64,000 bases of DNA from Spirochaetota bacterium (GCA_025457915.1 JALOTL010000014.1:5156-69155); one strand, 5' to 3'. Counted from the stretch's first letter, positions 12,500-31,648 are shown. The notes: generated by a model from the letters alone, not told the origin. A program made the numbers and translations.

Positions 12500-13264
12500 T
12501 CACGATTCCCGTTTCCCCTGGCCCCGGGCAATGAGCTCCGCGAGGATGACCCCGCGCGACCGCTCTTTCAACCTGTCGAGCTGGTCCTCGCCGTAGCCGG
12601 CGGTCTCAATTGCGGGATGTATCGTCATGATCGCGGTGCCGGGGAACACGTTCCAGCCCCCGGGCGGGAGAATGCGCCGGGTGCCGGTGATAGTGACGGG
12701 AAGCACCGGCAGGTTGAGCTCCCGGGCGATTACGAACGCCCCGTTTTTGAACTCACCGAGCTCGCCGGTCAGTGTCCGGGTCCCCTCGGGGAGAATGATG
12801 ATCGACGTGCCATCTACGATTTTGGAGCGGGCGGCATTGAGCGTGATTCTGAGCGCCTCCGGGCTCGAACGGTCGATGTAGATATTGCCGCCTATCTCGC
12901 CCGCATAACCGAACACGGGGACCTTCCGCAACTCCGACTTTATCACCCACTTGATGTTGATGCCGAGCCAGCCGTAGAGCACCAGGATATCATAATGGCT
13001 CTGGTGGTTGGCAATGACCACGTAAGAGCGGCCCTTCACGATGTTCTCCCTTCCGGTTACCTTCACCCGGATCGGCGTAATGCAGGCTATGAACCGCGAC
13101 CACCAGACCCCGGTCGTACGGTGCGCTACCCGGTCATTGAACAGGAACACAACGACGACGCCCATGGCCACGAAAAAGCAGGTCGCGAGCAGGCTCAGGG
13201 GAATGAACACCAGGAGCTTGTACGGCTGATAGAGGAGCCGGATAAGTTTTCGCGTGAAACCCAT
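12500..13264 (-). CDS. plsC: 1-acyl-sn-glycerol-3-phosphate acyltransferase (PlsC family)
   Basis: An N-terminal TM segment is followed by the HX4D motif (NHQSHYDILVL) and the EGTR box (ILPEGTRT). Confidence 0.8.
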   Translation of the reverse strand: MGFTRKLIRLLYQPYKLLVFIPLSLLATCFFVAMGVVVVFLFNDRVAHRTTGVWWSRFIACITPIRVKVTGRENIVKGRSYVVIANHQSHYDILVLYGWLGINIKWVIKSELRKVPVFGYAGEIGGNIYIDRSSPEALRITLNAARSKIVDGTSIIILPEGTRTLTGELGEFKNGAFVIARELNLPVLPVTITGTRRILPPGGWNVFPGTAIMTIHPAIETAGYGEDQLDRLKERSRGVILAELIARGQGKRES

Positions 13265-13324
13265 ACCAACAATCCTTAATCATAAAAAATAGACGCTACA
13301 GGCAGAACGCCGGGCCGGCGGCCG

Positions 13325-13870
13325 CTATTCAGCCGGGAAATATGACGTCCATACAATGGCGTCGAGAACGGCGGTCTGCAAACAGAACGCCGCGCATCCG
13401 ATTACCGCGAGCCGGTGGGCCCAGACGAGCGCGGCCGGCTGAACCGTGATGAGCGCCCCCAGGAGCAGCAGCGACGCAATGCCGGCAATTCCCAACACGA
13501 CGCGGATGCCTGTCCAGGCAATATGCGACGGGTTTGCAATCATATAAAACGTAAGCGGCATCCATAGCGCCGAGGGCACGAGGACCAGGGCATAGAGCCA
13601 TGGAAACAGTCCGTATGAAAAATGACCGGCGATCACGGCCTCGTCGGGGTCCATGCAAAACAGGATAAAATACGTAAAGGCAAGGTATCCCGCCGCCGCG
13701 GTGAACATCGATACGGTGTATACCGGCATAATGGCGCGGGGGACCCCGCCCCAGAGGGCACCGCGCGTTTCAGGGTGATTAATGATGCCGATAGCGTAGC
13801 TGACGAGCACGGCTATGCCGCCTATCAGATTTATCAGCAAAAGGAAGAGCTTATGCGCATGCATGTTCAT
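13325..13870 (-). CDS. Hypothetical integral membrane protein
   Basis: The 181-aa ORF has 5-6 predicted hydrophobic helices. No family was recognised. Confidence 0.5.
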   Translation of the reverse strand: MNMHAHKLFLLLINLIGGIAVLVSYAIGIINHPETRGALWGGVPRAIMPVYTVSMFTAAAGYLAFTYFILFCMDPDEAVIAGHFSYGLFPWLYALVLVPSALWMPLTFYMIANPSHIAWTGIRVVLGIAGIASLLLLGALITVQPAALVWAHRLAVIGCAAFCLQTAVLDAIVWTSYFPAE

Positions 13871-14326
13871 GGTATTTCCCCTGGCCCGGCGCTAAACAAT
13901 CTAAAATTAAAATATTCCTCATGTAAATTAATATACAACAATATTGGCCCGGCGAGTATATATCAAAAAAAAATATTAGCTGTTAAATGGTACCCGAGAC
14001 CGCGGCAGGATAGACGTTTACATCCATAAATTGCTTGATGGGTGTATCGTCCTTGTGAAGATGATTGTCATTAAAACTTCATAACATCAGCAAGGCAGAT
14101 TTGCTTTACTCATCTTTTCCCCCTCTCGGGGCATATATCGCCCCAGTCAGGGGCCGGGTTCATTAAGGGGGGATTTATAACTAAATCCCCCCTTCCACCC
14201 CCCTTAGTTCCGCTCTGCCGCGGCGGCTTGATTTCATCTACCAAATATTATCCGATCGGGGCCTGCGGAACTCAAACAAAGTTGTGAAGACTCGGACAGT
14301 CCTCGGCCAACTTTTATGGACGGCTT

Positions 14327-17300
14327 CGGTTCATCCCCACATGCGTGGGGAATACTTAATCTGGCGAATGGTCTTTATGAATTTATCCGGTTCATCCCCA
14401 CATGCGTGGGGAATACTAGTAATGTAGAAATTTCTGGTTCACCCTTTACGGTTCATCCCCACATGCGTGGGGAATACACGAGATCGCCCTTTTTGATTCG
14501 ATTCCGGCCCGGTTCATCCCCACATGCGTGGGGAATACCGGAATAGCCGCGACAAGCGCGTCGACATAGTCGGTTCATCCCCACATGCGTGGGGAATACG
14601 GCACGCCAATAACAGATGGAATTAACGGAAGCGGTTCATCCCCACATGCGTGGGGAATACGGTCGGTTGATCCGAATTCTGCCGCATTCTGACGGTTCAT
14701 CCCCACATGCGTGGGGAATACCAATAGAAGATATATCATCTATCGTCCATGAACGGTTCATCCCCACATGCGTGGGGAATACGGTCGAACGATAAACGGA
14801 TGCAGAAGATCATCCGGTTCATCCCCACATGCGTGGGGAATACTCCGATGAAGATATCGCAAATTGTATTTATGGCGGTTCATCCCCACATGCGTGGGGA
14901 ATACCGTTATCGCAAGCGCGGCATCGGCAGTTAAGACGGTTCATCCCCACATGCGTGGGGAATACAGTAGACCATTTCCAGTCTTTATAATTAGACCCGG
15001 TTCATCCCCACATGCGTGGGGAATACTTTTATTTCCTCACTTACTATGGCGCAATACCCGGTTCATCCCCACATGCGTGGGGAATACTTTAACAATGGAC
15101 GCAAATAAAATTCTTGATACGGTTCATCCCCACATGCGTGGGGAATACTAGCTTTCCACTCATCCAGCATCCTCGAGTAACGGTTCATCCCCACATGCGT
15201 GGGGAATACATCGGATGCCTCGACCGGCGACGCGGCGGCGGTTCATCCCCACATGCGTGGGGAATACGTTTTCCTGTGTTTTAAACGGATCGTCTGATCC
15301 GGTTCATCCCCACATGCGTGGGGAATACGAAAAACACCGGGGGCGCGTGGACCTGTTCCGCGGTTCATCCCCACATGCGTGGGGAATACAAAAACAGAAA
15401 TGACAGTCCCGGTTGACCCATCGGTTCATCCCCACATGCGTGGGGAATACTTAGCCTTGTCCATAAGCGACGGAGCCGGGGCCGGTTCATCCCCACATGC
15501 GTGGGGAATACTCCATAAAAAATCCTTTTAAAATAATTTAGTCCGGTTCATCCCCACATGCGTGGGGAATACTCGGACCAAACTGAGGGTCCCCAAATTT
15601 TGTGCGGTTCATCCCCACATGCGTGGGGAATACTCCATAAAAAATCCTTTTAAAATAATTTAGTCCGGTTCATCCCCACATGCGTGGGGAATACTAAAAA
15701 ATTGTCGTTTTTCATTTTTTGGCCTCCGGTTCATCCCCACATGCGTGGGGAATACATGAGAAAACACGGTTGTTTAAAATAACATGACGGTTCATCCCCA
15801 CATGCGTGGGGAATACCTGATATGCTCTGACATTATGTTTATATTCTCCGGTTCATCCCCACATGCGTGGGGAATACTTAATCTGGCGAATGGTCTTTAT
15901 GAATTTATCCGGTTCATCCCCACATGCGTGGGGAATACGCTGCTGCCTGTGTATATACAGTCATGTATCCCGGTTCATCCCCACATGCGTGGGGAATACG
16001 AACAATGAAAGAGACTGTAAACTGGAAGGATGCGGTTCATCCCCACATGCGTGGGGAATACGTTGCGGTAATAATAATCATGATAATCAGTTTCGGTTCA
16101 TCCCCACATGCGTGGGGAATACAAACCCCTTCATTCCGGCTTTTTTTACTATCGCGGTTCATCCCCACATGCGTGGGGAATACGTCCTATGGCCGGGGCA
16201 AGACGAAAAATTGAACGGTTCATCCCCACATGCGTGGGGAATACTATAAAAACCTACTGTCCACAATCCCGGCTCACGGTTCATCCCCACATGCGTGGGG
16301 AATACTGCGCCCTCATTCATCGGTTCGCCCTGGTCATCGGTTCATCCCCACATGCGTGGGGAATACCTGGGGAGCCTGCAGAGCGTGGGCGGGTCCCTCG
16401 GTTCATCCCCACATGCGTGGGGAATACAAGCGGTGTCAGCATAACAACGGCGGCGAACACGGTTCATCCCCACATGCGTGGGGAATACTTAATACACCTG
16501 CCTAAAATAGCAGAGTCCACCGGTTCATCCCCACATGCGTGGGGAATACCAACTCTCTCTCTGTTTTGGCATCCTGTATTGCGGTTCATCCCCACATGCG
16601 TGGGGAATACACCATCAGCAGTTGATTTTTTGAGACCATTACCGGTTCATCCCCACATGCGTGGGGAATACTCCCAACATGGTCCGGAGGAGGCGGATTA
16701 TTCCGGTTCATCCCCACATGCGTGGGGAATACTTGCCCGATCCAGTCGTCATGTTGGTTATTGCCGGTTCATCCCCACATGCGTGGGGAATACTTTTTTA
16801 CCTATCACCTGCCCCATTACTCTACCGGTTCATCCCCACATGCGTGGGGAATACAGCGTTACATTTTTTGTCGGGTTCGTTACATTCGGTTCATCCCCAC
16901 ATGCGTGGGGAATACTACTACATGATGGGGAATGCATCAGGGGATTGCGGTTCATCCCCACATGCGTGGGGAATACAGATGAACGAAAAAGAATTGAATC
17001 AGGACAAACGGTTCATCCCCACATGCGTGGGGAATACCCGGGAGCCTTTTCGATGACCGAGACATCCGGCGGTTCATCCCCACATGCGTGGGGAATACGG
17101 GCAATGCCCTGACTAATCTTGAAATCATAGCGGTTCATCCCCACATGCGTGGGGAATACAACATCCTGATTTGATCAAATAGACACTTTTTCGGTTCATC
17201 CCCACATGCGTGGGGAATACTATCACGTTTGACGTCACGGTGATAGTATCGCCGGTTCATCCCCACATGCGTGGGGAATACGAATTTGAACTGACTGGAG

Positions 17301-17830
17301 AAAAAGATTATAACGGTTCATCCCCACATGCGTGGGGAATACTCAGCCTTCCGGATGCGTCATATTCGCCCCCCCGGTTCATCCCCACATGCGTGGGGAA
17401 TACGTTCCCACCGCTATATCGGCAAACAAGCGCGACGGTTCATCCCCACATGCGTGGGGAATACTTCAATTGCAAACCGAGTTCATCGATTCGACGCGGT
17501 TCATCCCCACATGCGTGGGGAATACTGCATCAGCGTCGTTTGAAGTATTCGCGCTTTCGGTTCATCCCCACATGCGTGGGGAATACTCTCAAAGCGTCTA
17601 CATAGTGATTATGTTTATCGGTTCATCCCCACATGCGTGGGGAATACTGCCTTGCCTGCCTCGCCTTGCCTAGCCCCGCCGGTTCATCCCCACATGCGTG
17701 GGGAATACTTAAGTTTCGATTGGTTCGCCGTCCCGCTTTTAGGTTCATCCCCACATGCGTGGGGAATACTTAACCCACGTTTTCAACATCTCGGGGTCAT
17801 CCGGTTCATCCCCACATGCGTGGGGAATAC
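14327..17830 (-). CRISPR. Type I-E CRISPR array of 58 repeats (29 bp) and 57 spacers (mostly 32 bp, 61-bp period), transcribed on the minus strand
   Basis: On the plus strand the repeat reads CGGTTCATCCCCACATGCGTGGGGAATAC. Its reverse complement GTATTCCCCACGCATGTGGGGATGAACCG aligns 21/29 with the E. coli I-E repeat, including the 3' ...GGGGATGAACCG handle, and the plus orientation matches only about 11/29. It contains a 6-7-bp stem (CCCCAC/GTGGGG) with a 4-nt loop. All ORFs called inside this interval (HPHMRGEY, SSPHAWGI, FIPTCVGNT repeats) are artefacts of repeat translation. Confidence 0.97.
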
Positions 17831-17871
17831 TCTAAAACGATGTATAGTAGTTTTCAAGGAACTATGCTGAA

Positions 17872-18174
17872 TTATTCAGCCACATCATTACTCTTTTTCT
17901 TTTTTACCGGTTTACTCAGTAACGAAATTCCGTCAAAATCTATAACGTTTCTATCGGGATCACCATTCACCCTTATACCATACGACTGTTCAGTATTAGT
18001 TGTGAATATCATAATCGCATTCAAGTTCCACTCGGATACGATACGCTCCCACAGCTTATCCTTCACCCGTGCCCCGACATCGGCGACGAAAACGCCGCTT
18101 TTAACCTCAATAGCTAACCGCGACATCTCGCCCCTCTGCGAAGGGGTCGATTTCTCCAACATAATCACTACCAT
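17872..18174 (-). CDS. cas2: Cas2 (type I-E)
   Basis: MVVIMLEKSTPSQRGEMSRLAIEVKSGVFVADVGARVKDKLWERI... aligns with E. coli Cas2 ([47 protein letters not shown]...). Confidence 0.9.
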   Translation of the reverse strand: MVVIMLEKSTPSQRGEMSRLAIEVKSGVFVADVGARVKDKLWERIVSEWNLNAIMIFTTNTEQSYGIRVNGDPDRNVIDFDGISLLSKPVKKKKSNDVAE

Positions 18175-18991
18175 AAATCAAATCCTTCAAATCCGGTATG
18201 ATTCTCTTCATTATCCTTACCTGACGGAATCTATCCCGCAGCGAATATCTTACCCTGCGTTCTACGTCTTCTGCTGATTCTTTGACAATTTCGAAGGCGA
18301 CAGGAATTGTTATATCAGTTTTATACAGGTCGGCTATATCATAAACTAAAGAAAGTTGTTTGCCGGTGTGAACGAACCCGATCGCCGTTGAGAACCCGCA
18401 AGCCAGAATCGCGGCTTGAACCACGCCATATAAACACGCATTAGCTGAAGACAAAGCTCGGTTCAGCGGATCTCCATAATTCCAGTTCTCCTGATCATAA
18501 CTCCGTCCTTTCCAGTCCACACCATGTTCTTCCGATAAATCCTTATACGCCTTGCGCATACGGGCGCCTTCCATCCCTCGTATCTGTTCTATGGAGGCTT
18601 CCTTCTTTATTATTTCATTGAATCTTTTTTGATACATGGCCCTGATGACATTATCGCGCGACACAGGATCGCTGTAAATCTCAACCTGTTTCAATAAATT
18701 CCTCGATGAATATGTCCCAGAATAACCTGATGAATAAAAGCGCACTCCCATCTCGCCCGTCCATGCCACAAGACACCGGCTGTCAGAAATGCGTTTGATG
18801 GCCTCGTGAGTTATCGATGTGCCGGGACCGAGCATAAGCAGACAAAGGGTCTCGATCGGCACCGGTATTACCTTGTCGAGATAATGAAAACCGATAGATT
18901 TTTGATGCTGGTCTATAATGCCTTTCTCAAAATAGAGATAGGACCAGGTATCTTCGAACTTCGGAATTTCCTGAAGGTCGCGGTTGGTCAT
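18107..18991 (-). CDS. cas1: Cas1 (type I-E integrase)
   Basis: The 294-aa product shares ...PVPIETLCLLMLGPGTSITHEAIKRIS...GMEGARMRKAYK...LYGVVQAAILACGFSTAIGFVHTGKQLSLVYDIADLYK... with E. coli Cas1e. It overlaps the cas2 start by 68 nt. Confidence 0.92.
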   Translation of the reverse strand: MTNRDLQEIPKFEDTWSYLYFEKGIIDQHQKSIGFHYLDKVIPVPIETLCLLMLGPGTSITHEAIKRISDSRCLVAWTGEMGVRFYSSGYSGTYSSRNLLKQVEIYSDPVSRDNVIRAMYQKRFNEIIKKEASIEQIRGMEGARMRKAYKDLSEEHGVDWKGRSYDQENWNYGDPLNRALSSANACLYGVVQAAILACGFSTAIGFVHTGKQLSLVYDIADLYKTDITIPVAFEIVKESAEDVERRVRYSLRDRFRQVRIMKRIIPDLKDLIYGSDYVGEIDPFAEGRDVAVSY

Positions 18992-18993
18992 GG

Positions 18994-19671
18994 TTAACCT
19001 TTCTCCGCCTCAATTTTGTTTATTCTATGCGGAACAAATTGTCTTTTTCTGCTATCGAAGCTTATTGCATTGTCCAGCAAAGAATCTATTCCTTGTTTGA
19101 AATCATCGACATCCATTTGCCGTGTGAAACTTGAAATAGATTTTTCTCCAACGAGGGATTTAACTGCATCGGCTTCTGTTTCAAATAATCCCGCACATAC
19201 TGGTGCCGTTGGTATACAGCTTTTTCTGCCGAGCCAGATACCCCATGCAGGGTCCTTTAATGCTTGTGCGGCATTATCAAGTAAGTGTTTATCACCGGAT
19301 AATATCACACCGAATGCGGCATCATTCAGATATTGGCGGTAAGTGATCACGGCATTGGGATTGGAAGCACCGCTGGCTTTGATCGTTCCTTCAACGGTGT
19401 GATAATCAATCAACCTTCGTACTTCAAATACCCGTTTACCTTCAATGCGGGGTATTGAAATCGCAAGCATCTTAAGGGAAAGGAATTTTTCAAGAAAAGC
19501 TTTTTCATCATCCGATCCCCGCGAATAGCCGAGAGCTGCACAACACATGCCAGCAACAGCACTCTTGGTAGGCATGAGACCGGTGTTGCGCCGGTTAAAC
19601 TGGCTGTCGTATCCCCATGACTGCATGGGGCCTTCCAATCGCAAGGCAAGGTATCCGGTCTTATTTGACAT
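18994..19671 (-). CDS. cas5: Cas5e (CasD), Cascade subunit
   Basis: MSNKTGYLALRLEGPMQSWGYDSQF...LIDYHTV...QYLNDAAFGV...WLGRKSC matches the E. coli CasD N-terminus (YLILRLAGPMQAWGQPTFE...LRDYHTV...LGRRSC). Confidence 0.9.
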   Translation of the reverse strand: MSNKTGYLALRLEGPMQSWGYDSQFNRRNTGLMPTKSAVAGMCCAALGYSRGSDDEKAFLEKFLSLKMLAISIPRIEGKRVFEVRRLIDYHTVEGTIKASGASNPNAVITYRQYLNDAAFGVILSGDKHLLDNAAQALKDPAWGIWLGRKSCIPTAPVCAGLFETEADAVKSLVGEKSISSFTRQMDVDDFKQGIDSLLDNAISFDSRKRQFVPHRINKIEAEKG

Positions 19672-20695
19672 ATTTATCCACCTTCTTTAATAATTCATCA
19701 AGAGTAATATCAGGTATGGATTCACAGAGGGACTCATTCAGCCCCCATGTTTTTTTGTTATTATCATATTCGTTGTTTAACGCCTCCTTGGATAATTCAA
19801 AAATGCTTTTCCCATCCTTAGGACGTATCGGTTTTTCAAAAGCATTTACAAGCTGTATTGGATGACCTTCATCACGAACAACGCATTTTACATATCCTGG
19901 AAGCGTATTCCCATTCATCGAATTTCTTCGCGCAGAAGGCATTGCCATGAGAGTGGATTTTATAAAAGTTTTTACTACTTCTTTGCGTTCATTCAATGCA
20001 ACGGCTTCAAGATGGGATTCATCTGCAAGCATATCAAGGTTAAGGGCTGAAAATCTGTAATAGGTGGCTGAATTATATTCCAGTGTGCCCATCATACCAG
20101 CACCTACTTCTTCATTCTTTTGTCTGTCATCAACAGCAGTAAAAAAATCAATCTCGTTATCGGCTTTATGAGTTGAAATAGCATGAGAAAACATTGCTGC
20201 TCCTTCTATTTTAAGATCTGGAGCATCAGCCACCATTCTACCGAATAAACATAAATCCGCAGCATCCTTCAGTAAATCTTTTGATCCACCAGCTTTAATC
20301 GCCTTTTTCACATCTTTAGTAGCTGCATACTCCTTGGCCATTGACTCCAATTCCCTTTGTGTAGTAAAAAACATGGTCTTCACGCGGGTTTCTGTATCGA
20401 CTTTGTTCATCGCACCAGCAATGACTTTTGCACCCTCAATCGAATCATTCTTGTTTAGGCCTGCCTTTTGTAGTTGTTCAGTTAATGGTTCAATTATTAG
20501 TTTAGTTCTCTCCCCCCTAAACCCCTGAGGATATAATTCCTTGGCCATATCTCTTATCGCTCTCTTCCAGCACTGGCTGGACACTCGTGCCCGTTGTACA
20601 CCACCAAAAATCGCGGTCTTGGGCGAATTAAGATCATCGCGATTTAAACAGGAAACCGGTACTGATTGCAGAATATGTAATTCAAGATGTTTCAT
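19661..20695 (-). CDS. cas7: Cas7e (CasC), Cascade backbone subunit
   Basis: MKHLELHILQSVPVSCLNRDDLNSPKTAIFGGVQRARVSSQCWKRAIR... matches the conserved Cas7e N-terminus (…HILQ..P.SNLNRDD.G.PKTA..GGV.RARVSS..WKRA.R). Confidence 0.9.
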   Translation of the reverse strand: MKHLELHILQSVPVSCLNRDDLNSPKTAIFGGVQRARVSSQCWKRAIRDMAKELYPQGFRGERTKLIIEPLTEQLQKAGLNKNDSIEGAKVIAGAMNKVDTETRVKTMFFTTQRELESMAKEYAATKDVKKAIKAGGSKDLLKDAADLCLFGRMVADAPDLKIEGAAMFSHAISTHKADNEIDFFTAVDDRQKNEEVGAGMMGTLEYNSATYYRFSALNLDMLADESHLEAVALNERKEVVKTFIKSTLMAMPSARRNSMNGNTLPGYVKCVVRDEGHPIQLVNAFEKPIRPKDGKSIFELSKEALNNEYDNNKKTWGLNESLCESIPDITLDELLKKVDKYVK

Positions 20696-20706
20696 TGTGT
20701 TACTCC

Positions 20707-21348
20707 TTATTGTAATTTTAACGGTTGTATGACCATCATGCCGAACCCGAAGCCCTTGGCGCTGCCTATACCCATCATAAATGCCTTTTTAAAGGCTTCT
20801 CGATCTATAACTTCGAGGACTCCCTGAAATCTGATGCCTACGTGAAGCCCAGGGTCACTTTTAATCTGATTTTTTATAAACCGATAATTTTGCGCAGGCT
20901 CAATAAAAAGCGGGGGATCATCCAAAACTGAAAAGCCACTCTCTTGTGCCTTTCTGTTAAACCAGTTGATCTGATCTTCCAATATTGTAAGCGCTTTTCT
21001 CATTCCATTTTTAGTACGTTTACCCTTATCATCTGTTTTGGGAATCTTTTTCGTTGGATTTGCTTTTATATCGAAACGATAAAAATTATGATCAAGAAAA
21101 TCATTTTTTAATTCCCTTACCGCCCAACAATCTTCAGGACACCATTCGGGACGCATAGGCTCTTGTAATGCCAGAATAAAAAGCCGAAAACCTCTCTCAA
21201 CCGTATCGACCCTGAACAGAAAATCCCTAGTTTTATCAGGCTCACCGGGAAATGCCTTCCATGCGGCTTTATGCCATGCATAAACGTCAAAAAGCCTGTA
21301 ACGTGCCGCGGTTTTACAGTCTATTACAGCTTTACTCAGGTATTTCAT
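20707..21348 (-). CDS. cas6e: Cas6e (CasE), crRNA endoribonuclease; located upstream of cas7e/cas5e (non-canonical order)
   Basis: From the internal Met the product reads MKYLSKAVIDCKTAARYRLFDVYAWHKAAWKAFPGEPDKTRDFLFRVD..., aligning to E. coli CasE (MYLSKVII...LYQLHQGLWHLFPNRPDAARDFLFHVE). It has a Gly-rich C-terminal loop (GSAKGFGFG). The ORF extends to 21408 but the start at 21348 is preferred. Confidence 0.88.
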   Translation of the reverse strand: MKYLSKAVIDCKTAARYRLFDVYAWHKAAWKAFPGEPDKTRDFLFRVDTVERGFRLFILALQEPMRPEWCPEDCWAVRELKNDFLDHNFYRFDIKANPTKKIPKTDDKGKRTKNGMRKALTILEDQINWFNRKAQESGFSVLDDPPLFIEPAQNYRFIKNQIKSDPGLHVGIRFQGVLEVIDREAFKKAFMMGIGSAKGFGFGMMVIQPLKLQ

Positions 21349-21835
21349 CGACCACCTCCGCCCCAGACGCCCAGAAGGAAGTCGCCCAACGGGTTTTAAC
21401 ATTATCACCCCAATAGATCAGATCACTTTCCAGTAGGACGTAATTAACCGGTAATCCTTCCGCTTTTGCTCTCAGTACAATCCTTTTCACCCGTTCGCAA
21501 ATCTCATCTCGATTTGAGGCAATAAGGTATTGCAATCGCTTGGCCATTGTGCCAGGTTTAGAGTCAACTTTTCTTAATTCATTCCTTTCATCATCGCTGC
21601 ATAATTGAAAACACAATGAACCGATATTTCCTTTTAAAGTAGGCTCTGGATGGCTTGCGAATAATCCAGCAACGGTTTGTTTTACCCGAGCCTCATGTTC
21701 ATCTCCTATTCCGCCAAAATAGCCAAGATGCGGATATGCCCGAAAACGTTTGCTTTCAACCAGTGCGCATCGAAGATCGGCCATTAAACCCCGGTCATCC
21801 TTTTTCTTAACCAAATAATCAAGTAAAGCGCTCAT
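21332..21835 (-). CDS. cse2: Cse2 (CasB), Cascade small subunit
   Basis: The 167-aa alpha-helical protein sits between cse1 and cas6e. The motif ...DRGLMADLRCAL... is typical of Cse2. Confidence 0.75.
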   Translation of the reverse strand: MSALLDYLVKKKDDRGLMADLRCALVESKRFRAYPHLGYFGGIGDEHEARVKQTVAGLFASHPEPTLKGNIGSLCFQLCSDDERNELRKVDSKPGTMAKRLQYLIASNRDEICERVKRIVLRAKAEGLPVNYVLLESDLIYWGDNVKTRWATSFWASGAEVVDEIPE

Positions 21836-23469
21836 AGGTTTTCCTCCTCTTGATTTGTTTTTACCTGAATCGAATTAGTATCTTGTTCTTTTTTATTTAA
21901 AACCCTCCAGCCAAGCACAAAGGCCCTTATCTGACGCGGGGTTTCTCTGCCGCATACAAGCTTATACGATTCACGGGCTGCAGCAAAAAGTGTTTTCTGC
22001 CAAACTTTACGTGTTGCTTCGACTTTTTCAGCTGATGTACCTATTGCTTCAATATACAACATCAACAGCGGAAGTGATTTTTCGATAGTAGTCCAGTAGT
22101 GGGTGGTGGCTTTGGAATGTATTTGTACACGCAATAAATAAGATGAGCTGCTGCTCTTCAATCTCCCCTCCCAACCACCATCAAAAGCTTTTCTATATTC
22201 TTCTATCGCCCAGCCTAACTTCTTCGATATTATTTCTGCGAACTGGACTTCATTTTCATAAGCTGCTCGTCCTGCATTACTAAACATTTTTTCATTCACA
22301 TGATATACACTATCTACCATATCAATAATTGAAGCTTGGTCTCGTGCTAAAGCGAGTATATGAAAATCAACGGATTCATTCTGATCAATATTCATCAGGC
22401 ATAGTGGGCCTCCTGCTTGTTGTGCTTTTCTTTTAACAACCATAGATGGAAGCTCTCGCCACGTTGCCGTTTCAGGATTGAATCTTAACAACGAAAAAAT
22501 TTGTTTTTTTGTGTTTCTTGACAAAATTACGGTTGCAGTAACTTCTGGCGGGAAAGGTATTTTTGAATTAAATGATCGATACATTAATCCTTCACCAATG
22601 ATCATGCAATCACATGATGGAAGAATTCTTATAAGACGACTTAGCGGCACCAATCTTCCTAGATACGTCTCTGTGGCATTATTGATGAAATCTACATCTG
22701 ACCGTTTTGATGGAAATTTTTCCCATATTGGGTTGCCCCAATAGTTTTCTCCCAGTGGTGAGTAATGCATTCGTAGTTCTTTTTTTGTTATTAGATTCTT
22801 ATTAATCGTCTTAGCGATATTTGAAGATCTGATGAAACAATGATACATACTGCCTGGTGAACAGGGACCATCCGATGGATTTGGAGGTTTTTTTTCTGGT
22901 GGAATACCGCCCCATATTACTGCTGCTGTTTTACCACCTGCAAGGAAAAAATTCTGAAATGATAAAAGTTGCACAGCAATTTCAGAAGGGCTGAACTCCC
23001 GGAGAATTTGAGATGATGCTTCATGATCGAATAAGGTCGGATTGACACCTGATGCTAGCGTATGATCTAGTTTGCTTAATGATATCTGTCCGCCCTCATC
23101 ATCATTGTCTTGGTTTTTATCCATTTGTGACTTTGTTAAATTTGCTATCTGCAAAAAAGGCTTCTTGGGATGAAACAAATCGAAGGAATCACGCCATTTA
23201 TCCAGATAGTTTCGTGCAGCTCCGGGAAGTATTTCTTTCGCATTGAGCCAATCATCGTAATCTTCTGGCCCATCAAGCGAGGCATGTGCAATGCAGAGCA
23301 ATAAACGCATGAGAGATACTCGCTCGTGCGGTCTGACTGCAAGATCAGCATAATTTTCACCATCGGCAAAAACATCCATCAAGCCGATCAATCTATATTC
23401 ACCTTTCAAATTAGTGACAGGTATCCACTTTTCATCGACAAGATTGAATCCCTTATTCTGACGATTCAT
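21832..23469 (-). CDS. cse1: Cse1 (CasA / Cas8e), Cascade large subunit
   Basis: From the internal Met the product reads MNRQNKGFNLVDEKWIPVTNLKG..., matching the Cse1 N-terminus (MNLLIDNWIPVR...). It is about 545 aa. The ORF as called extends to 23487 and overlaps cas3. Confidence 0.85.
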   Translation of the reverse strand: MNRQNKGFNLVDEKWIPVTNLKGEYRLIGLMDVFADGENYADLAVRPHERVSLMRLLLCIAHASLDGPEDYDDWLNAKEILPGAARNYLDKWRDSFDLFHPKKPFLQIANLTKSQMDKNQDNDDEGGQISLSKLDHTLASGVNPTLFDHEASSQILREFSPSEIAVQLLSFQNFFLAGGKTAAVIWGGIPPEKKPPNPSDGPCSPGSMYHCFIRSSNIAKTINKNLITKKELRMHYSPLGENYWGNPIWEKFPSKRSDVDFINNATETYLGRLVPLSRLIRILPSCDCMIIGEGLMYRSFNSKIPFPPEVTATVILSRNTKKQIFSLLRFNPETATWRELPSMVVKRKAQQAGGPLCLMNIDQNESVDFHILALARDQASIIDMVDSVYHVNEKMFSNAGRAAYENEVQFAEIISKKLGWAIEEYRKAFDGGWEGRLKSSSSSYLLRVQIHSKATTHYWTTIEKSLPLLMLYIEAIGTSAEKVEATRKVWQKTLFAAARESYKLVCGRETPRQIRAFVLGWRVLNKKEQDTNSIQVKTNQEEENL

Positions 23470-26020
23470 CAGACACCCCCTGGGCACGTATTATTTCCAA
23501 ACCTTTATCAATAGTCCATTTAAGTCTTATTCCTTTTTTCAAATTAGCGACATCGAGAAAGCCTCCATCACCAGGCACTGATAAAATCACACAGCCTGAA
23601 ACATATTTCGGAAGATAAGCTAAAGATATTTTTTTTTCGAAAACCCATGCGGGCACTTTAACAAGATTTTTTTGAATCGCTTTTCCAGTATCCTTGCTTT
23701 TCTTCCCGGTTTTTTCTTCTTTTCGGGGTATTTGAGAACCGTTTAATAGAATAATAAAATTATCTAATCGCTCTCTGGCAAGTATTATGGACACCGTCGA
23801 CTGGGTATTATAGCGAGTCATTACTTCTTCTTCATCGTCAAGTGATGGCATTTTTAAAATCGCTGTGGCAATTAGAGCTTTCTGCATGAGACCGTTCTTT
23901 TTTTCATGCAAGTCAGCTTTAAGCTCTTTCCATGATTCTGATGGTTCAACATTTTCGGAATAAGTATATTCTATAATTGAACGGATATCAAAGGGAATTA
24001 AGATGGTTTTGGTGTCACGCTTTTTCCACTCCATATAGGTTCGAAGCAAAACATAAGGATCGTATACATATGCTTTATTTCCTAATGCTTTACGAATTTC
24101 GCTCGATGTCATTTCAATGGATTGCTGAATATTAAAACTCTCCTTAAGAATCCAGAGTTCCGGCTTTTCAATTGGCCGTAAATGCCGATTGTGTCTCCAC
24201 AATCTCCCGATACGTTGGAGAAGCATATCAGTCGGTGCAAGTTCGGTTATAATCAAGTCGGCATCGATATCCACGCTCTGTTCTACAACCTGAGTAGCTA
24301 CCAGAATACATGAACCGCGCCCATTCCCATTTTTTCCAAGTTTTTCTAGCCATTTTTGCTCAATCTCCTCTCTTCTAAAAAACGGAAATCGAGAATGTAA
24401 AAGGCCGATCTCGACTGATCCTCGGTTTTCTTTATGTTTAAAAGAGTCGTATATTTCCTGTGAACGGGCAATAGTATCGCATATCCAAACTATCGAAGCT
24501 CCATTTTGCGCTTTTCCCCATGCATTAGAAATTGCTTTATTTTCATCAATAAAGCGTATGGCTATTTCTTTATTTTCTGGAGAATCAAGCGTAACGTCTG
24601 GTAGTATTTGTCCATCTGCGGTTTTTCCGCTGAGAAGAGGGTACCCGTTTGAGGAAGTCTTTTCATCATTATCAATGTCAAGCAATTCTATTCGCCGCGT
24701 TGCAGTAAGCGTGGCAGAGAGTATAATTACTGTGGCGCCAAGTTGTACGAGAGATCGACATAAATTATTTATGAGTGTTCCAGTATATATATCATAGGAA
24801 TGCACTTCATCAAGAATCACCACTTTGCCAGCCAGCGCAAACAGGCGAACAAAGAAATGCTTAACAGCTATAACACCCATGAGCGCCTGGTCTACAGTTC
24901 CTACACCAAATGGTGAAAGCAATGCGCGTTTTGGAGATGAAAACCAATCATATGCTGAGTCTCTTTCTTGGCTATCTCCATCAGGGTTGTTATTAATCTC
25001 CGGGATTTCAATTTTGTCATCTAATAACCAAGAGTTGCCGTGTATTAATTGTATAGATAGTGTTTTTTCGCAGATTCTATTGATAAAATCGACAACCCTT
25101 AGATGGATACGATTACTTGTAGTTTGGGTGGGGAGCGCAAAATAAATACCCGAAGCCTTTCCACTATTACAAAGCTGATAAGCAACGGAAAGTGCGGCTT
25201 CTGTTTTCCCTATACCCATAGGTGCTTCAATGACATAAATACCAGGCTCTTTTATAAATGCATTAACTGCAGTCTGTAGAGCATTTGCCTCGAATTCGAA
25301 GTAATCATAGAAATGCTTGCCGTTAATAATTGAAGGACGCACAAAACCAATATTATATAATGCTTCTTGGGTCCGTATTCTCGATTCTTCTGGGGGGATA
25401 TTACTCCCGGCAGGAAAAAACCGCTCATCGGACCCGATCCAATCGGACACCGTTGTCAAACCTGCAACAAACCAAAGGAGTGGATTGTCCGGTTTAACCG
25501 GGGAACTAATCAATTTGCCGTTGTTTTCAATAAAACTCTTTGCTACTTGACGACGCTTTTCTTCCCAGTAATCGTCACTCATTCCGAATCCCGGCAATAA
25601 TCCTCTCTCTCCATTATAGGTTATCCGACCGTGATGAGCGCCGATGGCCGCAGCCCAAAGCGTTGATGACATGCGGTCAAGTCCTGTATCCATTAATAAG
25701 TGCTCAATAGTATATTGGCTTACTTGAGAATGATTATATGGTGAGTTATCCCATCCATTTCGAATATCTTCCTTTTCCAAATTATACTTATGAAGCCACC
25801 CATGGCATTTCCTTTGAAATTGTGGAGAGATTTTACCTAAATCATGAAGGCCCGAGAGTATGGAAATATCAGTATTGGTAATATCAATACTGATTCTGGG
25901 ATAAAATATCGAAAAAATGCATTTTGCTACTGATGCAACATTTTGCATGTGGTGGTAAACATCTATCCCTGGGTTTTTATCTTCTGTTGTTTTTGCCCAA
26001 AATTCAATGTTATTCTGCAT
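23453..26020 (-). CDS. cas3: Cas3, HD nuclease fused to a superfamily-2 DEAH helicase
   Basis: The N-terminal HD domain has ...VYHHMQNVASV...LHDLGKISPQFQ.... The helicase has Walker A (APMGIGKTEAAL), a DEVH box (VILDEVHSYD) and motif VI (QRIGRLWR). The product is 855 aa. Confidence 0.93.
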   Translation of the reverse strand: MQNNIEFWAKTTEDKNPGIDVYHHMQNVASVAKCIFSIFYPRISIDITNTDISILSGLHDLGKISPQFQRKCHGWLHKYNLEKEDIRNGWDNSPYNHSQVSQYTIEHLLMDTGLDRMSSTLWAAAIGAHHGRITYNGERGLLPGFGMSDDYWEEKRRQVAKSFIENNGKLISSPVKPDNPLLWFVAGLTTVSDWIGSDERFFPAGSNIPPEESRIRTQEALYNIGFVRPSIINGKHFYDYFEFEANALQTAVNAFIKEPGIYVIEAPMGIGKTEAALSVAYQLCNSGKASGIYFALPTQTTSNRIHLRVVDFINRICEKTLSIQLIHGNSWLLDDKIEIPEINNNPDGDSQERDSAYDWFSSPKRALLSPFGVGTVDQALMGVIAVKHFFVRLFALAGKVVILDEVHSYDIYTGTLINNLCRSLVQLGATVIILSATLTATRRIELLDIDNDEKTSSNGYPLLSGKTADGQILPDVTLDSPENKEIAIRFIDENKAISNAWGKAQNGASIVWICDTIARSQEIYDSFKHKENRGSVEIGLLHSRFPFFRREEIEQKWLEKLGKNGNGRGSCILVATQVVEQSVDIDADLIITELAPTDMLLQRIGRLWRHNRHLRPIEKPELWILKESFNIQQSIEMTSSEIRKALGNKAYVYDPYVLLRTYMEWKKRDTKTILIPFDIRSIIEYTYSENVEPSESWKELKADLHEKKNGLMQKALIATAILKMPSLDDEEEVMTRYNTQSTVSIILARERLDNFIILLNGSQIPRKEEKTGKKSKDTGKAIQKNLVKVPAWVFEKKISLAYLPKYVSGCVILSVPGDGGFLDVANLKKGIRLKWTIDKGLEIIRAQGVSDESSE

Positions 26021-26290
26021 TATTTATAAAACCAATATCTAATATTAATAATTGCTTAATAATTATTTTCATCTCCCCGTCTTTACAACATACAATCTCC
26101 TCCCTGACAGAAAGTGACATATACATCCGTTTGGCACCCAAAAAGAGTTGAAACTTTTTAAAATATATATAATAATATTATTATATGCAAACTGTTTTTT
26201 ATAGTTTTAACTTTTCATTTTGAAGTAATTTAATTATGCGTTAAAAAACATCTTTGATCTTAGTATTAATATTTTTTAGGAGCTATTCCA
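26021..26290. promoter_or_regulatory. AT-rich divergent promoter region between cas3 and the WYL regulator gene, containing a 20-bp perfect palindrome
   Basis: The 270-bp intergenic region is very AT-rich. A perfect palindrome ATATAATAATATTATTATAT lies at 26167-26186. The RBS AGGAGCTATTCC precedes the WYL gene ATG at 26291. Confidence 0.5.
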
Positions 26291-27262
26291 ATGAAATATG
26301 GCAAACCTCTCCTCTCAAGGATACAATTTATTGATGCCCGTATCCGTGATGGTAAATATCCCAATTCACGTAAACTTGCAGAAGAGTATGAGGTTAGTGA
26401 ACGAACTATTCACCGTGATATTGATTATATGAGGGACATGCTTGGTTGCCCAATAGAATATAATAAAAATAAACGTGGCTATTATTACGCAGAGCCCTTC
26501 TTTTCACTCCCTTCCGTACAAATAACCGAAAAAGAACTATTTGCATTTTGTGTAGCAGAAAAAGCATTAGAAGAATACCGTGCTACCCCTCTATATGACA
26601 CTTTAGCTAAAGTCTATAAAAAACTTACCGAAAATTTAACAGATGAAATTACAGCCAATTTTTCATGGTTAAATCCTGATATATCATTCATTCAACAAAG
26701 CACAACAATAATCACACCTTCAATCTGGGAAACAATATCTACTGCACTTTATACTCATTCTGTTTTAGATGCCAGTCATCGTAAAGCCGGCGCCACCAAA
26801 TCAACTAAACGCTTGATAGAGCCATATCATATGGCAATCTATGAAGGAGAATGGTATTTAATAGGCTACTGTAGATTAAAAAAAGAAACATTAATATTCG
26901 CAATATCACGATTTGAAAGTGTGAAACGTTTAAACGAAACATTTGTAAAACCAGAAACATTTAACATTAATGAATATTTAGGTTCTCATTTCGGTATAAC
27001 AAGAGAAAATGAGAATTATCAGGTCAAAGTGAAATTCAACTCCACAGCTGCACCTTATATCTTGGAACGTAATTGGTCTTGCGACCAAACAATAGATAAA
27101 AATAAAGATGGAAGTATTATTTTAACTTTTAAATCAAATTCTATCAAAGAAGTAAAGCGCTGGGTCTTAAGTTGGGGTTCAACAGTTGAGGTTATTTCCC
27201 CAAATGAGTTAGTACTGGATATTTATAATGAATTAAAATTGATGATAGAAAATTACAAATAA
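26291..27262 (+). CDS. HTH-WYL-domain transcriptional regulator (DeoR-type HTH N-terminus, central WYL domain, C-terminal WCX-like extension)
   Basis: The N-terminus carries the HTH ...YPNSRKLAEEYEVSERTIHRDIDYM.... The WYL motif reads ...RLIEPYHMAIYEGEWYLIGYCRLKKETLIFAISRF.... The gene is divergent from cas3. Confidence 0.8.
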   Translation: MKYGKPLLSRIQFIDARIRDGKYPNSRKLAEEYEVSERTIHRDIDYMRDMLGCPIEYNKNKRGYYYAEPFFSLPSVQITEKELFAFCVAEKALEEYRATPLYDTLAKVYKKLTENLTDEITANFSWLNPDISFIQQSTTIITPSIWETISTALYTHSVLDASHRKAGATKSTKRLIEPYHMAIYEGEWYLIGYCRLKKETLIFAISRFESVKRLNETFVKPETFNINEYLGSHFGITRENENYQVKVKFNSTAAPYILERNWSCDQTIDKNKDGSIILTFKSNSIKEVKRWVLSWGSTVEVISPNELVLDIYNELKLMIENYK

Positions 27263-27604
27263 ATTGTTTTTTAACGAATGGCATCACCTTTTTATTATAA
27301 ATTTTTTTCGTTCCTTGATTCAAATTCCCGTCTCATAATTCATCTCTTCCTCCTTTCTTCCTCCTATGTTGCTCCTATCTAGCTCCTATGTTGCTCCAGT
27401 ATATTTTTTTTTAATTTTTAAAGAAGATCTCTACGTTTCAATAATTGGTAAAAATTTTAAAAAATTTCCTCAAAAATTTTCATAAACCCCTCCCCTGCTC
27501 GTCAATTTATTAAAAGCACATAAGGAGGTATGGCATGTAGAACAAAAAATTCGTAATCAATCTCAAAAGTTCAAAAATTATTTAAAGCCATAGGAGGTAT
27601 AATC

Positions 27605-28228
27605 ATGGCAAAAGTAGATTTAAATCCCGTCTTCGAGGGATTCAGTAAAAAAATCGGAGAACTCGTTTTTTACACGAAAGGTGGCATGGCCTTCGTAAGA
27701 AGGCTGGGGTCATTTAAAAATCCCAACAGCCCGAAACAGCTTGAAGTGAGAAACCGTTTCATGCAGGCAACCGGTCTCTGGAAAACAGTCGGCGGCATCA
27801 TGCACCGCGGCTGGTACGAATACGCAAAAAAGAAAAGGCTTTACGGTTACCCGGCCTTTATAGGTGAAAACACTAAAAGGTTTGCTAACCAACTTGCGCC
27901 GGACCTCTTCAAGGAACACGGTGAGGCCCCTCTTTCATCTTTCACCTGCGAACCTTCTGCGTCATCAGGTGAAATTATGTGTTCATTCACAAATCCATCT
28001 TCAAATGCTGAAAAACATGTTACTCTCTTCGCACATGAAAAGTTAAATGGTCAGCCTATTGTTGAGGTCAGAAGAATCGATCTTGGTCTCTCTCCTGCAT
28101 CGCCACATGCAGTGTCTGGTTTTGAACCCGGAAAAACTTATACCATTCATGCGGTTGTAACAGACAGGATGTATCCTGAAGCGGAATCATCTTCAGCGTC
28201 TCTTTCGCACGAATCATTGGTTAACTGA
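27605..28228 (+). CDS. Hypothetical 207-aa protein of unknown function at the edge of the cas island
   Basis: The ATG at 27605 has a strong RBS (AGGAGGTATAATC). No family was recognised. The gene is followed by a bidirectional hairpin terminator. Confidence 0.5.
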   Translation: MAKVDLNPVFEGFSKKIGELVFYTKGGMAFVRRLGSFKNPNSPKQLEVRNRFMQATGLWKTVGGIMHRGWYEYAKKKRLYGYPAFIGENTKRFANQLAPDLFKEHGEAPLSSFTCEPSASSGEIMCSFTNPSSNAEKHVTLFAHEKLNGQPIVEVRRIDLGLSPASPHAVSGFEPGKTYTIHAVVTDRMYPEAESSSASLSHESLVN

Positions 28229-29701: not shown

Positions 29702-31648
29702 TCATGCAATCGCTTCCTGCAATATCTCGACGACCCGTATCGGGTTCGCCTTTCCGCGGATTCTCACCAGCCCGATCATTCGATGCGGGTATTTGTCCCT
29801 GTCGGCGGCTTTATCGAAGCTTTCCATGCTCAACAGAATTTTTGTATTCAGTTTTTTGTTCAAGCCTTCGAGCCTCGATGCGGTGTTTACGGCATCGGAA
29901 ATAACGGTGGTATCCATCCTGTTCTCTTCGCCTATGGTCCCGAGGACGAGCGTTCCGGTGTGTATTCCCACCCCGATGTTGATGTCCGTTTCTCCGCAGA
30001 GCCTGTAGCAGTCGTTCAGTTCCCGGAGCGCCCGGTGCATCTGGATTGCGGCATTGATCGCATCGTCGACGGATTCCGGAAAGAGCGCCATGATCGCGTC
30101 CCCGATATACTTGTCTATGAACCCGTTGTTGCTTCTTATTATCGGGGCGATTTTTTGCAGGTATGAATTCAGGAAGTCGATGTTTTCCTTGGGCGACATC
30201 CGCTCCGAGATTTTGGTGAAGGAACGTATATCCGAAAAGAGCACCGTCATCTCCCTTATGCTCTGGTCCCCGAGTTTGATCTCCGCGATGTTCTCGCGGT
30301 CGAGGTACCGCAGAAACTCTTTCGGCACGAACCGCGAAAAAGATTCCGCCGTCTCTTTCTGCCGCTCGAACGCCTCCCTCTGCACCGACTCTTTTTCACG
30401 CTGCATGATCCTCATCCTGTCCGCGAGGGCGAGGGACATCAATATGATCTCGAACGCGGACCCCATGAGTATGGAATAATCGGTGAAGAGATTATGCGGC
30501 AGCAGACCGAAGTTTTTCATGGGCAGAATTATGAAGCCGCTGATTATGCCGATCCATGCGACGAGGTACAGACGCGCGGGCCGGTATCCCGTCATGAAGC
30601 TTTTAACGGCCGTGAAAAGCAATATGATCGAACCGGCGATCGAAAGGAAAGAAACGATCTGGACGGCGATGCGGTATTCCAGGAACCACGCGGCCGGGAT
30701 GTTGCATATGAAGAGGACGACCATGCCGAGGACCGCTTTATTCAGATACGGGGCGTTTTTGCGGGACTGGAGAAACAACCGGCCGAAGGTGTTCATGAAA
30801 ATGGCGAGTACAGATCCGGACATCGGGGTCGACATCATATGGGCCCAGATGCTTTCCTTCGGGAAATAAACTCCAGTCAGACCGTTAAGTGAAAGCTGGA
30901 AAACGGCGGCCGATAAAATGTAGAGGACATATACCAGGTAGTCCCTGGAACGGATCGTGATGAAAATGAACAGGTTGAGGAGCGCCATTACCAGCAGGAG
31001 GCCGAAGTAAAGCCCGAATACGTACTGCTCGTTCATGGCGGACTGGACGAAGGCCCGCGATTCCCACACTATGAGCGGGATGTTCATCGACCCCTCTGTT
31101 TTGATCCGCAGGTATACCTCATGGGTGCGGCCCGGTTCCGACGGTATCTGGACCACCGCGTTCCGGTAAGGCGTCTCGCGGTCATTGTAAGCGACCACGG
31201 TCCCGGCCTCTTTCTTCACCACGGTAGAACCGTCCTTTATATAGTATTGCACATCGTCGATGAGGGGATATCCCACCTCGAGGAGCAGCTTTTTTGTCTC
31301 CCTGATGTTTTTGACCGGTGCACAGGCATATTTGAAATAAATCCAGTATGCCGATCCGGTGAAACCGAAATTCAACGTTTTCTTTGTCAATGGCCTGAAC
31401 GGATCTTTTGTTTCCGAAAGCTCGAGCAGTTGCCTGAACGTCAGGTTCCCGGTTTTATCCTCATAATACGACACGCTCCTGTCGATCCGTTGCGACTGGA
31501 ACGGGCCGCTGAATTTTATCGTGCCCTTTTTTACGGTCTTTGAATCCGCTGCTGAAAGAGGGAACGAGAGGAGGACAATAAAAAACACGAATAAGGCGGT
31601 AAATACTCCCCTGTATCCCGATGCAGCGATGTTAATTCGCATGTTCAT
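29702..31648 (-). CDS. Sensor class-III adenylate/guanylate cyclase with 7TMR-DISM extracellular and 7TM receptor domains
   Basis: A signal peptide and a roughly 170-aa extracellular domain are followed by 7 TM helices. The cyclase catalytic core has ...VLFSDIRSFTKISE...FIDKYIGDAIMALF...GIHTGTLVLGTIGEENRMDTTVISDAVNTASRLE.... Confidence 0.8.
   Translation of the reverse strand: MNMRINIAASGYRGVFTALFVFFIVLLSFPLSAADSKTVKKGTIKFSGPFQSQRIDRSVSYYEDKTGNLTFRQLLELSETKDPFRPLTKKTLNFGFTGSAYWIYFKYACAPVKNIRETKKLLLEVGYPLIDDVQYYIKDGSTVVKKEAGTVVAYNDRETPYRNAVVQIPSEPGRTHEVYLRIKTEGSMNIPLIVWESRAFVQSAMNEQYVFGLYFGLLLVMALLNLFIFITIRSRDYLVYVLYILSAAVFQLSLNGLTGVYFPKESIWAHMMSTPMSGSVLAIFMNTFGRLFLQSRKNAPYLNKAVLGMVVLFICNIPAAWFLEYRIAVQIVSFLSIAGSIILLFTAVKSFMTGYRPARLYLVAWIGIISGFIILPMKNFGLLPHNLFTDYSILMGSAFEIILMSLALADRMRIMQREKESVQREAFERQKETAESFSRFVPKEFLRYLDRENIAEIKLGDQSIREMTVLFSDIRSFTKISERMSPKENIDFLNSYLQKIAPIIRSNNGFIDKYIGDAIMALFPESVDDAINAAIQMHRALRELNDCYRLCGETDINIGVGIHTGTLVLGTIGEENRMDTTVISDAVNTASRLEGLNKKLNTKILLSMESFDKAADRDKYPHRMIGLVRIRGKANPIRVVEILQEAIA

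Follow-up and report, generated by a model that had tools for sequence, protein, structure and literature searches.

Two pairs of identical spacers in the type I-E CRISPR array of a Spirochaetota bacterium: ordinary array dynamics and a tentative case for re-capture

How do two spacers of one CRISPR array come to be present twice, each time as an exact copy? This question is raised by an array in a 64,000-nt stretch of DNA from an uncultured Spirochaetota bacterium represented by a metagenome-assembled genome (MAG; GCA_025457915.1 JALOTL010000014.1:5156-69155), the whole of which is called the window below. A preliminary description of the sequence had pointed out the two pairs and had offered three origins without choosing among them, namely segmental duplication, recombination between repeats, and repeated acquisition of the same protospacer.

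The array was extracted by script with the repeat CGGTTCATCCCCACATGCGTGGGGAATAC, which gave 58 repeats and 57 spacers (55 distinct) between positions 14327 and 17830. The number of spacers was as described beforehand, as was the placing of the second copy of the first spacer about 25 units in (sp1 and sp26). Tandem Repeats Finder returned periodicities of 61 nt and 122 nt, in agreement with the extracted array. All repeats but one are identical (57/58); the sole variant, at 17741, begins with A and not C in the plus-strand reading. Spacer length is 32 nt in 55 of the 57 spacers, with sp15 measuring 29 nt and sp28 33 nt. The units that matter here are as follows.

14327-17830, minus strand: type I-E CRISPR array with 29-nt repeats and a 61-nt period, transcribed from right to left
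14327-14355, minus strand: terminal (trailer) repeat, an exact consensus copy, not degenerate
14356-14387, minus strand: spacer 1 (sp1), the trailer-most unit and oldest position; copy of spacer 26
15512-15543, minus strand: spacer 20 (sp20), 19% GC; copy of spacer 22
15573-15604, minus strand: spacer 21 (sp21), the lone unrelated spacer separating sp20 from sp22
15634-15665, minus strand: spacer 22 (sp22); copy of spacer 20
15878-15909, minus strand: spacer 26 (sp26); copy of spacer 1, with neighbours (sp25 and sp27) unrelated to sp2 or to the trailer flank
17741-17769, minus strand: sole variant repeat, with T and not G as its last transcribed base; the incoming spacer is sp56

No further repeat remnant was found to the left of the terminal repeat. 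The presence of a copy at the normally inert terminal position, next to a perfect terminal repeat, is mildly unusual.

Both pairs are identical over their full length, as had been claimed: sp1 and sp26 read TTAATCTGGCGAATGGTCTTTATGAATTTATC (32/32 nt), and sp20 and sp22 read TCCATAAAAAATCCTTTTAAAATAATTTAGTC (32/32 nt). The reservation that scripted extraction might show the copies to differ therefore falls away. Together with its flanking repeats, sp22 (15605-15694) makes up a 90-nt perfect direct repeat of 15483-15572. With 57 spacers drawn at random, the expected number of identical 32-mer pairs would be about 1596 x 4^-32, or about 1e-16; the identical pairs are therefore not the product of chance. 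An all-versus-all comparison in both orientations revealed no other related pair of spacers, the longest shared word being a 10-11-mer, and no spacer had a self-targeting match elsewhere in the window at up to 6 mismatches. Both identical pairs are genuine, and ordinary array dynamics lie behind them. Spacer duplication within arrays is an already known phenomenon that has been quantified before (SpacerPlacer 2024, PMC11472070; Kupczok et al. 2015, PMC4524480), and it occurs here at the usual rate: duplicated spacers account for 2/57 (3.5%), and a survey of CRISPRCasdb classed about 3.3% of spacers as duplication candidates and found at least one in about half of the array groups (SpacerPlacer 2024, PMC11472070). 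The earlier view that exact duplicates are uncommon is thereby tempered.

What is repeated are single repeat-spacer units, at a distance of 2 units in one pair and 25 in the other. On either side of sp1 lie the trailer flank and sp2, and on either side of sp26 lie sp25 and sp27; sp20 is flanked by sp19 and sp21, and sp22 by sp21 and sp23. The neighbours of all four copies are unrelated, tandem identical units are absent, and no neighbouring spacer is repeated, which refutes a simple block duplication, the segmental origin among the three that had been offered.

The locus itself was then typed and oriented. All eight cas genes exceed the NCBIfam type I-E cut-offs, and the Pfam calls in the source record concur.

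23453-26020, minus strand: cas3 (NCBIfam type I-E)
21832-23487, minus strand: cse1 (NCBIfam type I-E)
21332-21835, minus strand: cse2 (NCBIfam type I-E)
20707-21408, minus strand: cas6e (NCBIfam type I-E)
19661-20695, minus strand: cas7 (NCBIfam type I-E)
18994-19671, minus strand: cas5 (NCBIfam type I-E)
18107-18991, minus strand: cas1e (NCBIfam type I-E)
17872-18126, minus strand: cas2e, 84 aa in the JGI call; the ORF reaches 18174
17831-17871, minus strand: leader-proximal segment separating the cas2 stop from the first repeat

The genes run in the order cas3-cse1-cse2-cas6e-cas7-cas5-cas1-cas2 from 26020 down to 17872. The repeat, which reads GTATTCCCCACGCATGTGGGGATGAACCG on the minus strand, contains a 6-bp stem (CCCCAC/GTGGGG) with a 4-nt loop; it is a palindromic 29-nt repeat with a ...GGGGAT.AACCG end, it alternates with 32-33-nt spacers at a period of 61 nt, and it presumably resembles the E. 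coli type I-E repeat. No Rfam match at the gathering score was obtained in 13000-19000. The locus is a complete type I-E CRISPR-Cas.

Relatives with an 85%-identical Cas1 conserve the roughly 30 nt next to the repeat at 17831 but not the sequence just upstream. In addition, the AAG PAM lies 5' of the phage protospacers described below only in the minus-strand orientation. The minus-strand repeat, the position of cas2 at 17872, the conserved 30 nt and the side of the AAG collectively place the leader at 17831 and beyond, and the first unit is leader-distal, as had been read from the sequence before. With the leader adjoining cas2, sp57 is the newest unit and sp1 holds the oldest position. The identical Cas1 and flanking proteins are known from one sample only, JGI metagenome 3300037461, where Cas1 is on contig Ga0392394_0000090; exact look-ups of Cas2 and of the 648-aa ORF gave no match, with differing start calls as the probable cause.

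Eight non-duplicated spacers match two phage contigs of this same metagenome. IMGVR_UViG_3300037461_000269 (UViG_000269), which was found by an IMG/VR scan with sp24 and sp29, is a 36.9-kb phage contig of 42% GC that encodes the small and large terminase, portal, head protein, protease and helicase. Three loci together gave 34.5 kb of it, and this sequence was scanned along with 69 other viral loci. IMGVR_UViG_3300037461_000610 (UViG_000610) is a contig related to it. The protospacers are listed below, the first six on UViG_000269 and the last two on UViG_000610.

sp6: 1 mismatch, at position 7; PAM GGG; strand as sp24
sp13: 3 mismatches, distal; PAM AAG; other strand
sp24 (15756-15787, minus strand of the window): 31/32, with the mismatch at seed position 1; PAM AAG; reference strand
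sp45: 1 mismatch, at position 10; PAM AAT; strand as sp24
sp47: 3 mismatches, at positions 13, 15 and 25; PAM ACG; other strand
sp54: 2 mismatches, at positions 5 and 18; PAM AAG; strand as sp24
sp50 (17343-17374, minus strand of the window): perfect match; PAM AAG
sp52 (17465-17496, minus strand of the window): perfect match; PAM AAG

An AAG PAM is present at about 5-6 of the 8 phage protospacers, and the others have AAT, ACG or GGG alongside further differences. In type I-E of E. coli, the last transcribed base of a repeat derives from the PAM of the incoming spacer. Here, too, the AAG precedes the protospacer on the 5' side and its G ends the repeat, and the sole variant repeat deviates at that base alone. 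Acquisition by this system takes place with an AAG PAM, and the system is active in situ. On one strand, 168 nt separate the protospacers of sp50 and sp52; in the array, a single spacer lies between sp50 and sp52, and the 430-nt stretch that holds the two sites has 9 AAG sites. On UViG_000269, a single strand carries the sites of sp24, sp45 and sp54 inside 2.2 kb; two of the six sites on this contig are on the other strand, and the strand bias is thus not strict. At five of the six (sp24, sp54, sp45, sp6 and sp47), the phage differs at the PAM or seed. Several spacers per invader, clustered and on one strand, with differences at PAM or seed, make up the pattern of priming-type acquisition. Acquisition in the array is locally clustered, not uniform. 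Protospacer choice is not uniform either, given that 25/55 spacers end in A (p=0.006) and 10/55 in AA (p=0.014).

The target search that had been proposed for the spacers thus yielded phage targets for these eight and none for the duplicated ones. No protospacer of sp1/26, sp20/22, sp21, sp23 or sp25 was found in the phage and plasmid collections, IMG/VR, one metagenome scan, one genome scan, the 34.5 kb of UViG_000269 and the 69 viral loci, the limits for these spacers being 8 mismatches on UViG_000269 and 5 on the other viral loci. BLAST searches (E<=1) with the 55 distinct spacers gave no match among 50,697 phage records or 72,556 plasmids, and exact IMG/VR scans with sp20, sp21, sp1 (nt 7-32), sp23 (nt 1-26), sp25, sp54, sp2 and sp6 were empty. 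The metagenome scan with sp20 and sp21 returned one chance chimera, 26/32 to sp20 in an unrelated ORF, from a collection evidently without the source sample. The genome scan with sp1 and sp23, run against species representatives without this MAG, returned six chance matches in A/T-rich sequence of at most 26/32.

Spacers 20 and 22-26 are AT-rich (19-31% GC), and we considered sp20-sp26 as one burst from a single AT-rich invader. The case for this is weak: permutation gives p = 0.01-0.03 when the duplicates are counted and 0.06-0.15 when they are removed, sp24 maps to a phage of 42% GC that contains none of the others of sp20-sp26, and the location of three of the four copies within 7 units is not significant (p about 0.10).

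For the origin of the pairs, we tentatively and narrowly prefer re-capture of the same AAG-flanked protospacer by Cas1-Cas2, with insertion at the leader end; for the duplicated spacers themselves, with no target found, this is what we infer. An AAG-flanked protospacer would have been captured once and, later, a second time by Cas1-Cas2; sp22 would have entered the array two acquisitions later than sp20, and sp26 25 later than sp1. Under the ruler mechanism, and with the PAM-derived G kept at the end of the repeat, a protospacer captured twice would give identical units. One event per pair suffices, and the repetition of single units with differing neighbours is in keeping with it. The support is circumstantial, and to this extent the preliminary suggestion of re-acquisition has gained ground. 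The locus is complete, its eight phage-matching spacers target contigs that co-occur with it, mostly with an AAG PAM, and sp50 and sp52 look like a burst in which, with 9 AAG sites in 430 nt, taking the same site twice would be roughly a 1-in-10 event. Moreover, sp24, sp45 and sp54 indicate return to one region across a long array history, the PAM and seed differences in the phage are the classic condition for primed adaptation, and the A and AA ends testify to a biased choice of spacers. The younger copies, sp22 and sp26, fall within five units in the AT-rich run, which weakly favors re-capture as well, although the significance of that run is lost without the duplicates.

Several observations weigh against re-capture. 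For neither pair did the searches described above yield a protospacer. In the largest survey, 695 insertions away from the leader were counted against 8 at the leader end while another copy was present (SpacerPlacer 2024, PMC11472070), a strong prior for rearrangement. A target that is matched perfectly by a spacer of the cell should be destroyed, and the literature examined holds no documentation of the re-capture of an already-targeted protospacer. That the terminal spacer should be the one re-sampled is a 1-in-25 coincidence, and the 90-nt direct repeats around sp20 and sp22 must have survived 35 later acquisitions. Re-capture has its better case in sp20/sp22, whereas sp1/sp26 is close to a three-way tie.

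The second contender, possible but in our estimate less probable than re-capture, is Cas-independent, repeat-mediated copying of a single unit, with the secondary copy either internal or at the trailer end. Such copying could proceed by replication misalignment with two template switches, by a conversion-like exchange between misaligned sister arrays, or by a block duplication of which a part was later deleted. The first 28 transcribed bases are the same in all 58 repeats, the normally degenerate terminal repeat included, and with identical repeats every one of them is a substrate for recombination. A single internal unit distinguishes two related arrays, L003 and L007, which indicates that single-unit repeat-mediated events occur in this lineage. 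Furthermore, the survival of the unstable 90-nt repeats fits a recent rearrangement. Simple misalignment, however, gives tandem blocks of the form XX or XYXY, none of which is present, and a second, less likely step is therefore needed here: an X-Y-X arrangement requires two events, and its XYXY intermediate more readily reverts. A conversion-like exchange would have to proceed across 29-bp arms, which are at the limit of homologous recombination. For sp1/sp26, a duplication of 25 units and a deletion of 24 units would be needed, which is very unlikely when set against a published mean deletion block of 2.7 units (SpacerPlacer 2024, PMC11472070). The prior from other arrays nevertheless speaks for copying. 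Of the duplication candidates in the survey cited above, 86% were placed away from the leader end, and in some data sets, E. coli type I-E among them, duplicates within an array account for 1-11% of the spacers. Reviews blame misalignment or recombination between repeats for spacer duplications (Garrett 2021, PMC8047081), and deletions accompanied by duplications of other spacers have been seen experimentally.

An event at the unusually intact terminal repeat was considered for sp1/sp26, and we regard it as improbable; sp1 would then not be the oldest memory. By one route, Cas1-Cas2 would have integrated the same prespacer ectopically into the terminal repeat. By the other, sibling arrays sharing an anchor spacer would have been joined, with the leader-proximal repeat of variant A (sp1-sp25) linked to the terminal repeat of variant B (sp26-sp57). 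Either route yields the structure in a single step. One copy is exactly terminal, which random placement would give in about 4-7% of cases, and the terminal repeat is perfect, unlike typical degenerate ones. Both processes also have precedents: within one community, variant arrays have been shown to have anchor (trailer-end) spacers in common (Lam and Ye 2019, PMC6617893), and ectopic integration away from the leader is documented in other systems (cited in Garrett 2021, PMC8047081). On the other hand, the terminal position was spotted post hoc and has been reported to be rarely involved in rearrangements, recombination between arrays is rare, the terminal repeat would be the site of only about 1 in 32 such joins, variant arrays were not recovered, and sp20/sp22 would be left unexplained. 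If sibling arrays had indeed been joined, sp2-sp25 and sp27-sp57 would be parallel and not sequential histories, and the reading of the array as a timeline would break.

An assembly artefact, in which the assembler looped through or mis-joined repeats of a real array that holds each spacer once, is very unlikely, since the junctions in the array (flank to sp1, sp1 to sp2, sp25 to the sp1 copy, the sp1 copy to sp27, sp20 to sp21, and sp21 to the sp20 copy) are incompatible with any duplicate-free linear array. The suspicion, which the preliminary description had voiced, has some grounds. The sequence comes from a metagenome assembled from short reads; the one other assembly of this run, SRR12684589 (Logan, k=31), stops at both edges of the array, at 17804 (in the first repeat) and 14160, and gives no independent confirmation; and a related array from another, low-coverage assembly has suspicious two-spacer block repeats and loops back at the contig end. 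The window consists of two joined JGI contigs of metagenome 3300037461 and is not a second assembly. Ga0392394_0000686 ends at window position 30507, and Ga0392394_0000090 begins at 30633, a position extrapolated linearly from an identical 20.9-kb locus and not read directly. The contigs overlap by exactly 127 nt, pointing to a final de Bruijn k of 127. The repeat-spacer-repeat unit of 90 nt is shorter than k-1, and each copy thus shares single k-mers, and hence single reads, with its own neighbours; the junctions from sp21 to the sp20 copy and from sp25 to the sp1 copy must occur in reads.

Collectively, the preliminary interpretation, which was sensibly hedged, is partly supported. The case adds nothing new in kind, and its value is modest, that of a well-resolved example. 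Its assets are the 58 repeats, a terminal repeat that is intact, and the co-occurrence of a phage with differences at PAM and seed. For single-unit, non-adjacent duplicates, the choice between re-capture and rearrangement is still treated as open in the literature. Duplicated spacers are also a caveat, in that array order is no clean timeline and the longer direct repeats that they create destabilise the array.

The array can be compared with four known situations. In ectopic integration, the target repeat is duplicated and the spacer comes to lie between two perfect repeats, as at the trailer end here; that process is known mainly from type II-A systems or leader mutants, and here it is the structure alone that suggests it. 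With anchor spacers and recombination between arrays (PMC6617893; PMC4524480), the locus shares the trailer-end position of sp1, and an anchor join gives exactly this structure; the difference is that no sibling arrays were recovered here, and the route is speculative. Duplications by misalignment likewise place exact units twice in an array, at a similar frequency (3.5% here and 3.3% in the survey) and with identical repeats as the substrate, but the units here are single and non-adjacent, no block is repeated, and one copy is terminal. The primed, hot-spot acquisition of E. coli type I-E differs in gene order, cas6e preceding cas7 and cas5 in our locus, and in the distance from cas2 to the first repeat, which is just 41 nt here; the re-capture of an identical protospacer is, in our array, something that we infer. 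The two systems nevertheless have in common the cas set, the 29-nt repeat, the 32-nt spacers and the AAG PAM with its G retained, together with one-strand clustering in a phage region and differences at PAM and seed.

Six of the 57 spacers in the minus-strand array, numbered from the trailer end (sp1, oldest position) to the leader end (sp57, newest), matched a single 36.9-kb phage contig, IMGVR_UViG_3300037461_000269, from the same metagenome as the array. The phage loci compared were L023, L024, L026 and L044.

Spacers matching UViG_000269, with the state of the phage site
14661-14692, sp6: PAM GGG and a difference at position 7
15088-15119, sp13: no PAM or seed difference
15756-15787, sp24: difference at position 1
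17038-17069, sp45: PAM AAT
17160-17191, sp47: PAM ACG
17587-17618, sp54: difference at position 5

Given that PAM or seed differences were found at five of the six sites (all but that of sp13), this looks like a pattern of escape in situ. Two further spacers matched a second, related phage contig, UViG_3300037461_000610.

Spacers matching UViG_3300037461_000610
17343-17374, sp50: perfect match, AAG-flanked
17465-17496, sp52: perfect match, AAG-flanked

Their sites on the phage locus (L025, 4482-4513 and 4681-4712) lie on one strand, 168 nt apart, and in the array only a single unit separates the two spacers; this is priming-like local acquisition.

The spacers themselves were nearly uniform, and only sp15 (15210-15238, 29 nt) and sp28 (16000-16032, 33 nt) departed from 32 nt. 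Their PAM-distal ends were enriched for A (25 of 55 distinct spacers, p=0.006) and for AA (10 of 55, p=0.014). A motif affecting acquisition has been described in E. coli, and the bias at the spacer ends is reminiscent of it. The sole variant repeat, at 17741 and adjoining sp56, carries T instead of G as its last transcribed base. Since it is this base that is copied from the PAM in type I-E systems, sp56 probably derives from a non-AAG or slipped site.

The terminal repeat is degenerate in most arrays; here the trailer-end repeat (14327-14355) is a perfect copy, and no repeat remnant was found beyond it (14200-14326). A perfect hairpin, GGGGGGATTTA-TAAC-TAAATCCCCCC, occupies 14167-14192 between the trailer and the neighbouring gene, and the k=31 Logan contig from the source run stops just short of it, at 14160. 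At the leader end (17831-17990), the first repeat is only 41 nt from the cas2 stop codon, so that any leader functions more than about 40 nt from the repeat necessarily lie, at least in part, within the coding sequence of cas2. The 30 nt nearest the first repeat are kept in relatives.

One related type I-E array, L003 (17295-18723, ERZ724040 NODE_250; Cas1 85% identical), has at least 124 repeats. Two-spacer blocks occur twice in it, 9 and 8 units apart, and the contig end loops back into spacer 114; because coverage was only 4.8x, these features may reflect an assembly loop. L003 shares 99 spacers with L007, from a different sample, in the same order but for one internal unit. The window itself joins JGI contigs Ga0392394_0000686 and Ga0392394_0000090 at 30507-30633, within a 648-aa ORF, and their exact 127-nt overlap indicates assembly at k=127.

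The cas region (18000-28000) looks like an acquired island, given its GC content of 34-44% versus 56-62% in the left flank. Upstream of cas3 lies one divergent gene:

26291-27262, plus strand, WYL-domain regulator gene

There are signs of shuffling between the adaptation and effector modules. The gene order at 18994-21408 is cse2-cas6e-cas7-cas5, whereas it is cse2-cas7-cas5-cas6e in the relatives L003-L012, whose Cas1 is 85% identical and whose repeat is near-identical; their Cas3, Cse1 and Cse2 differ in size from those of the window.
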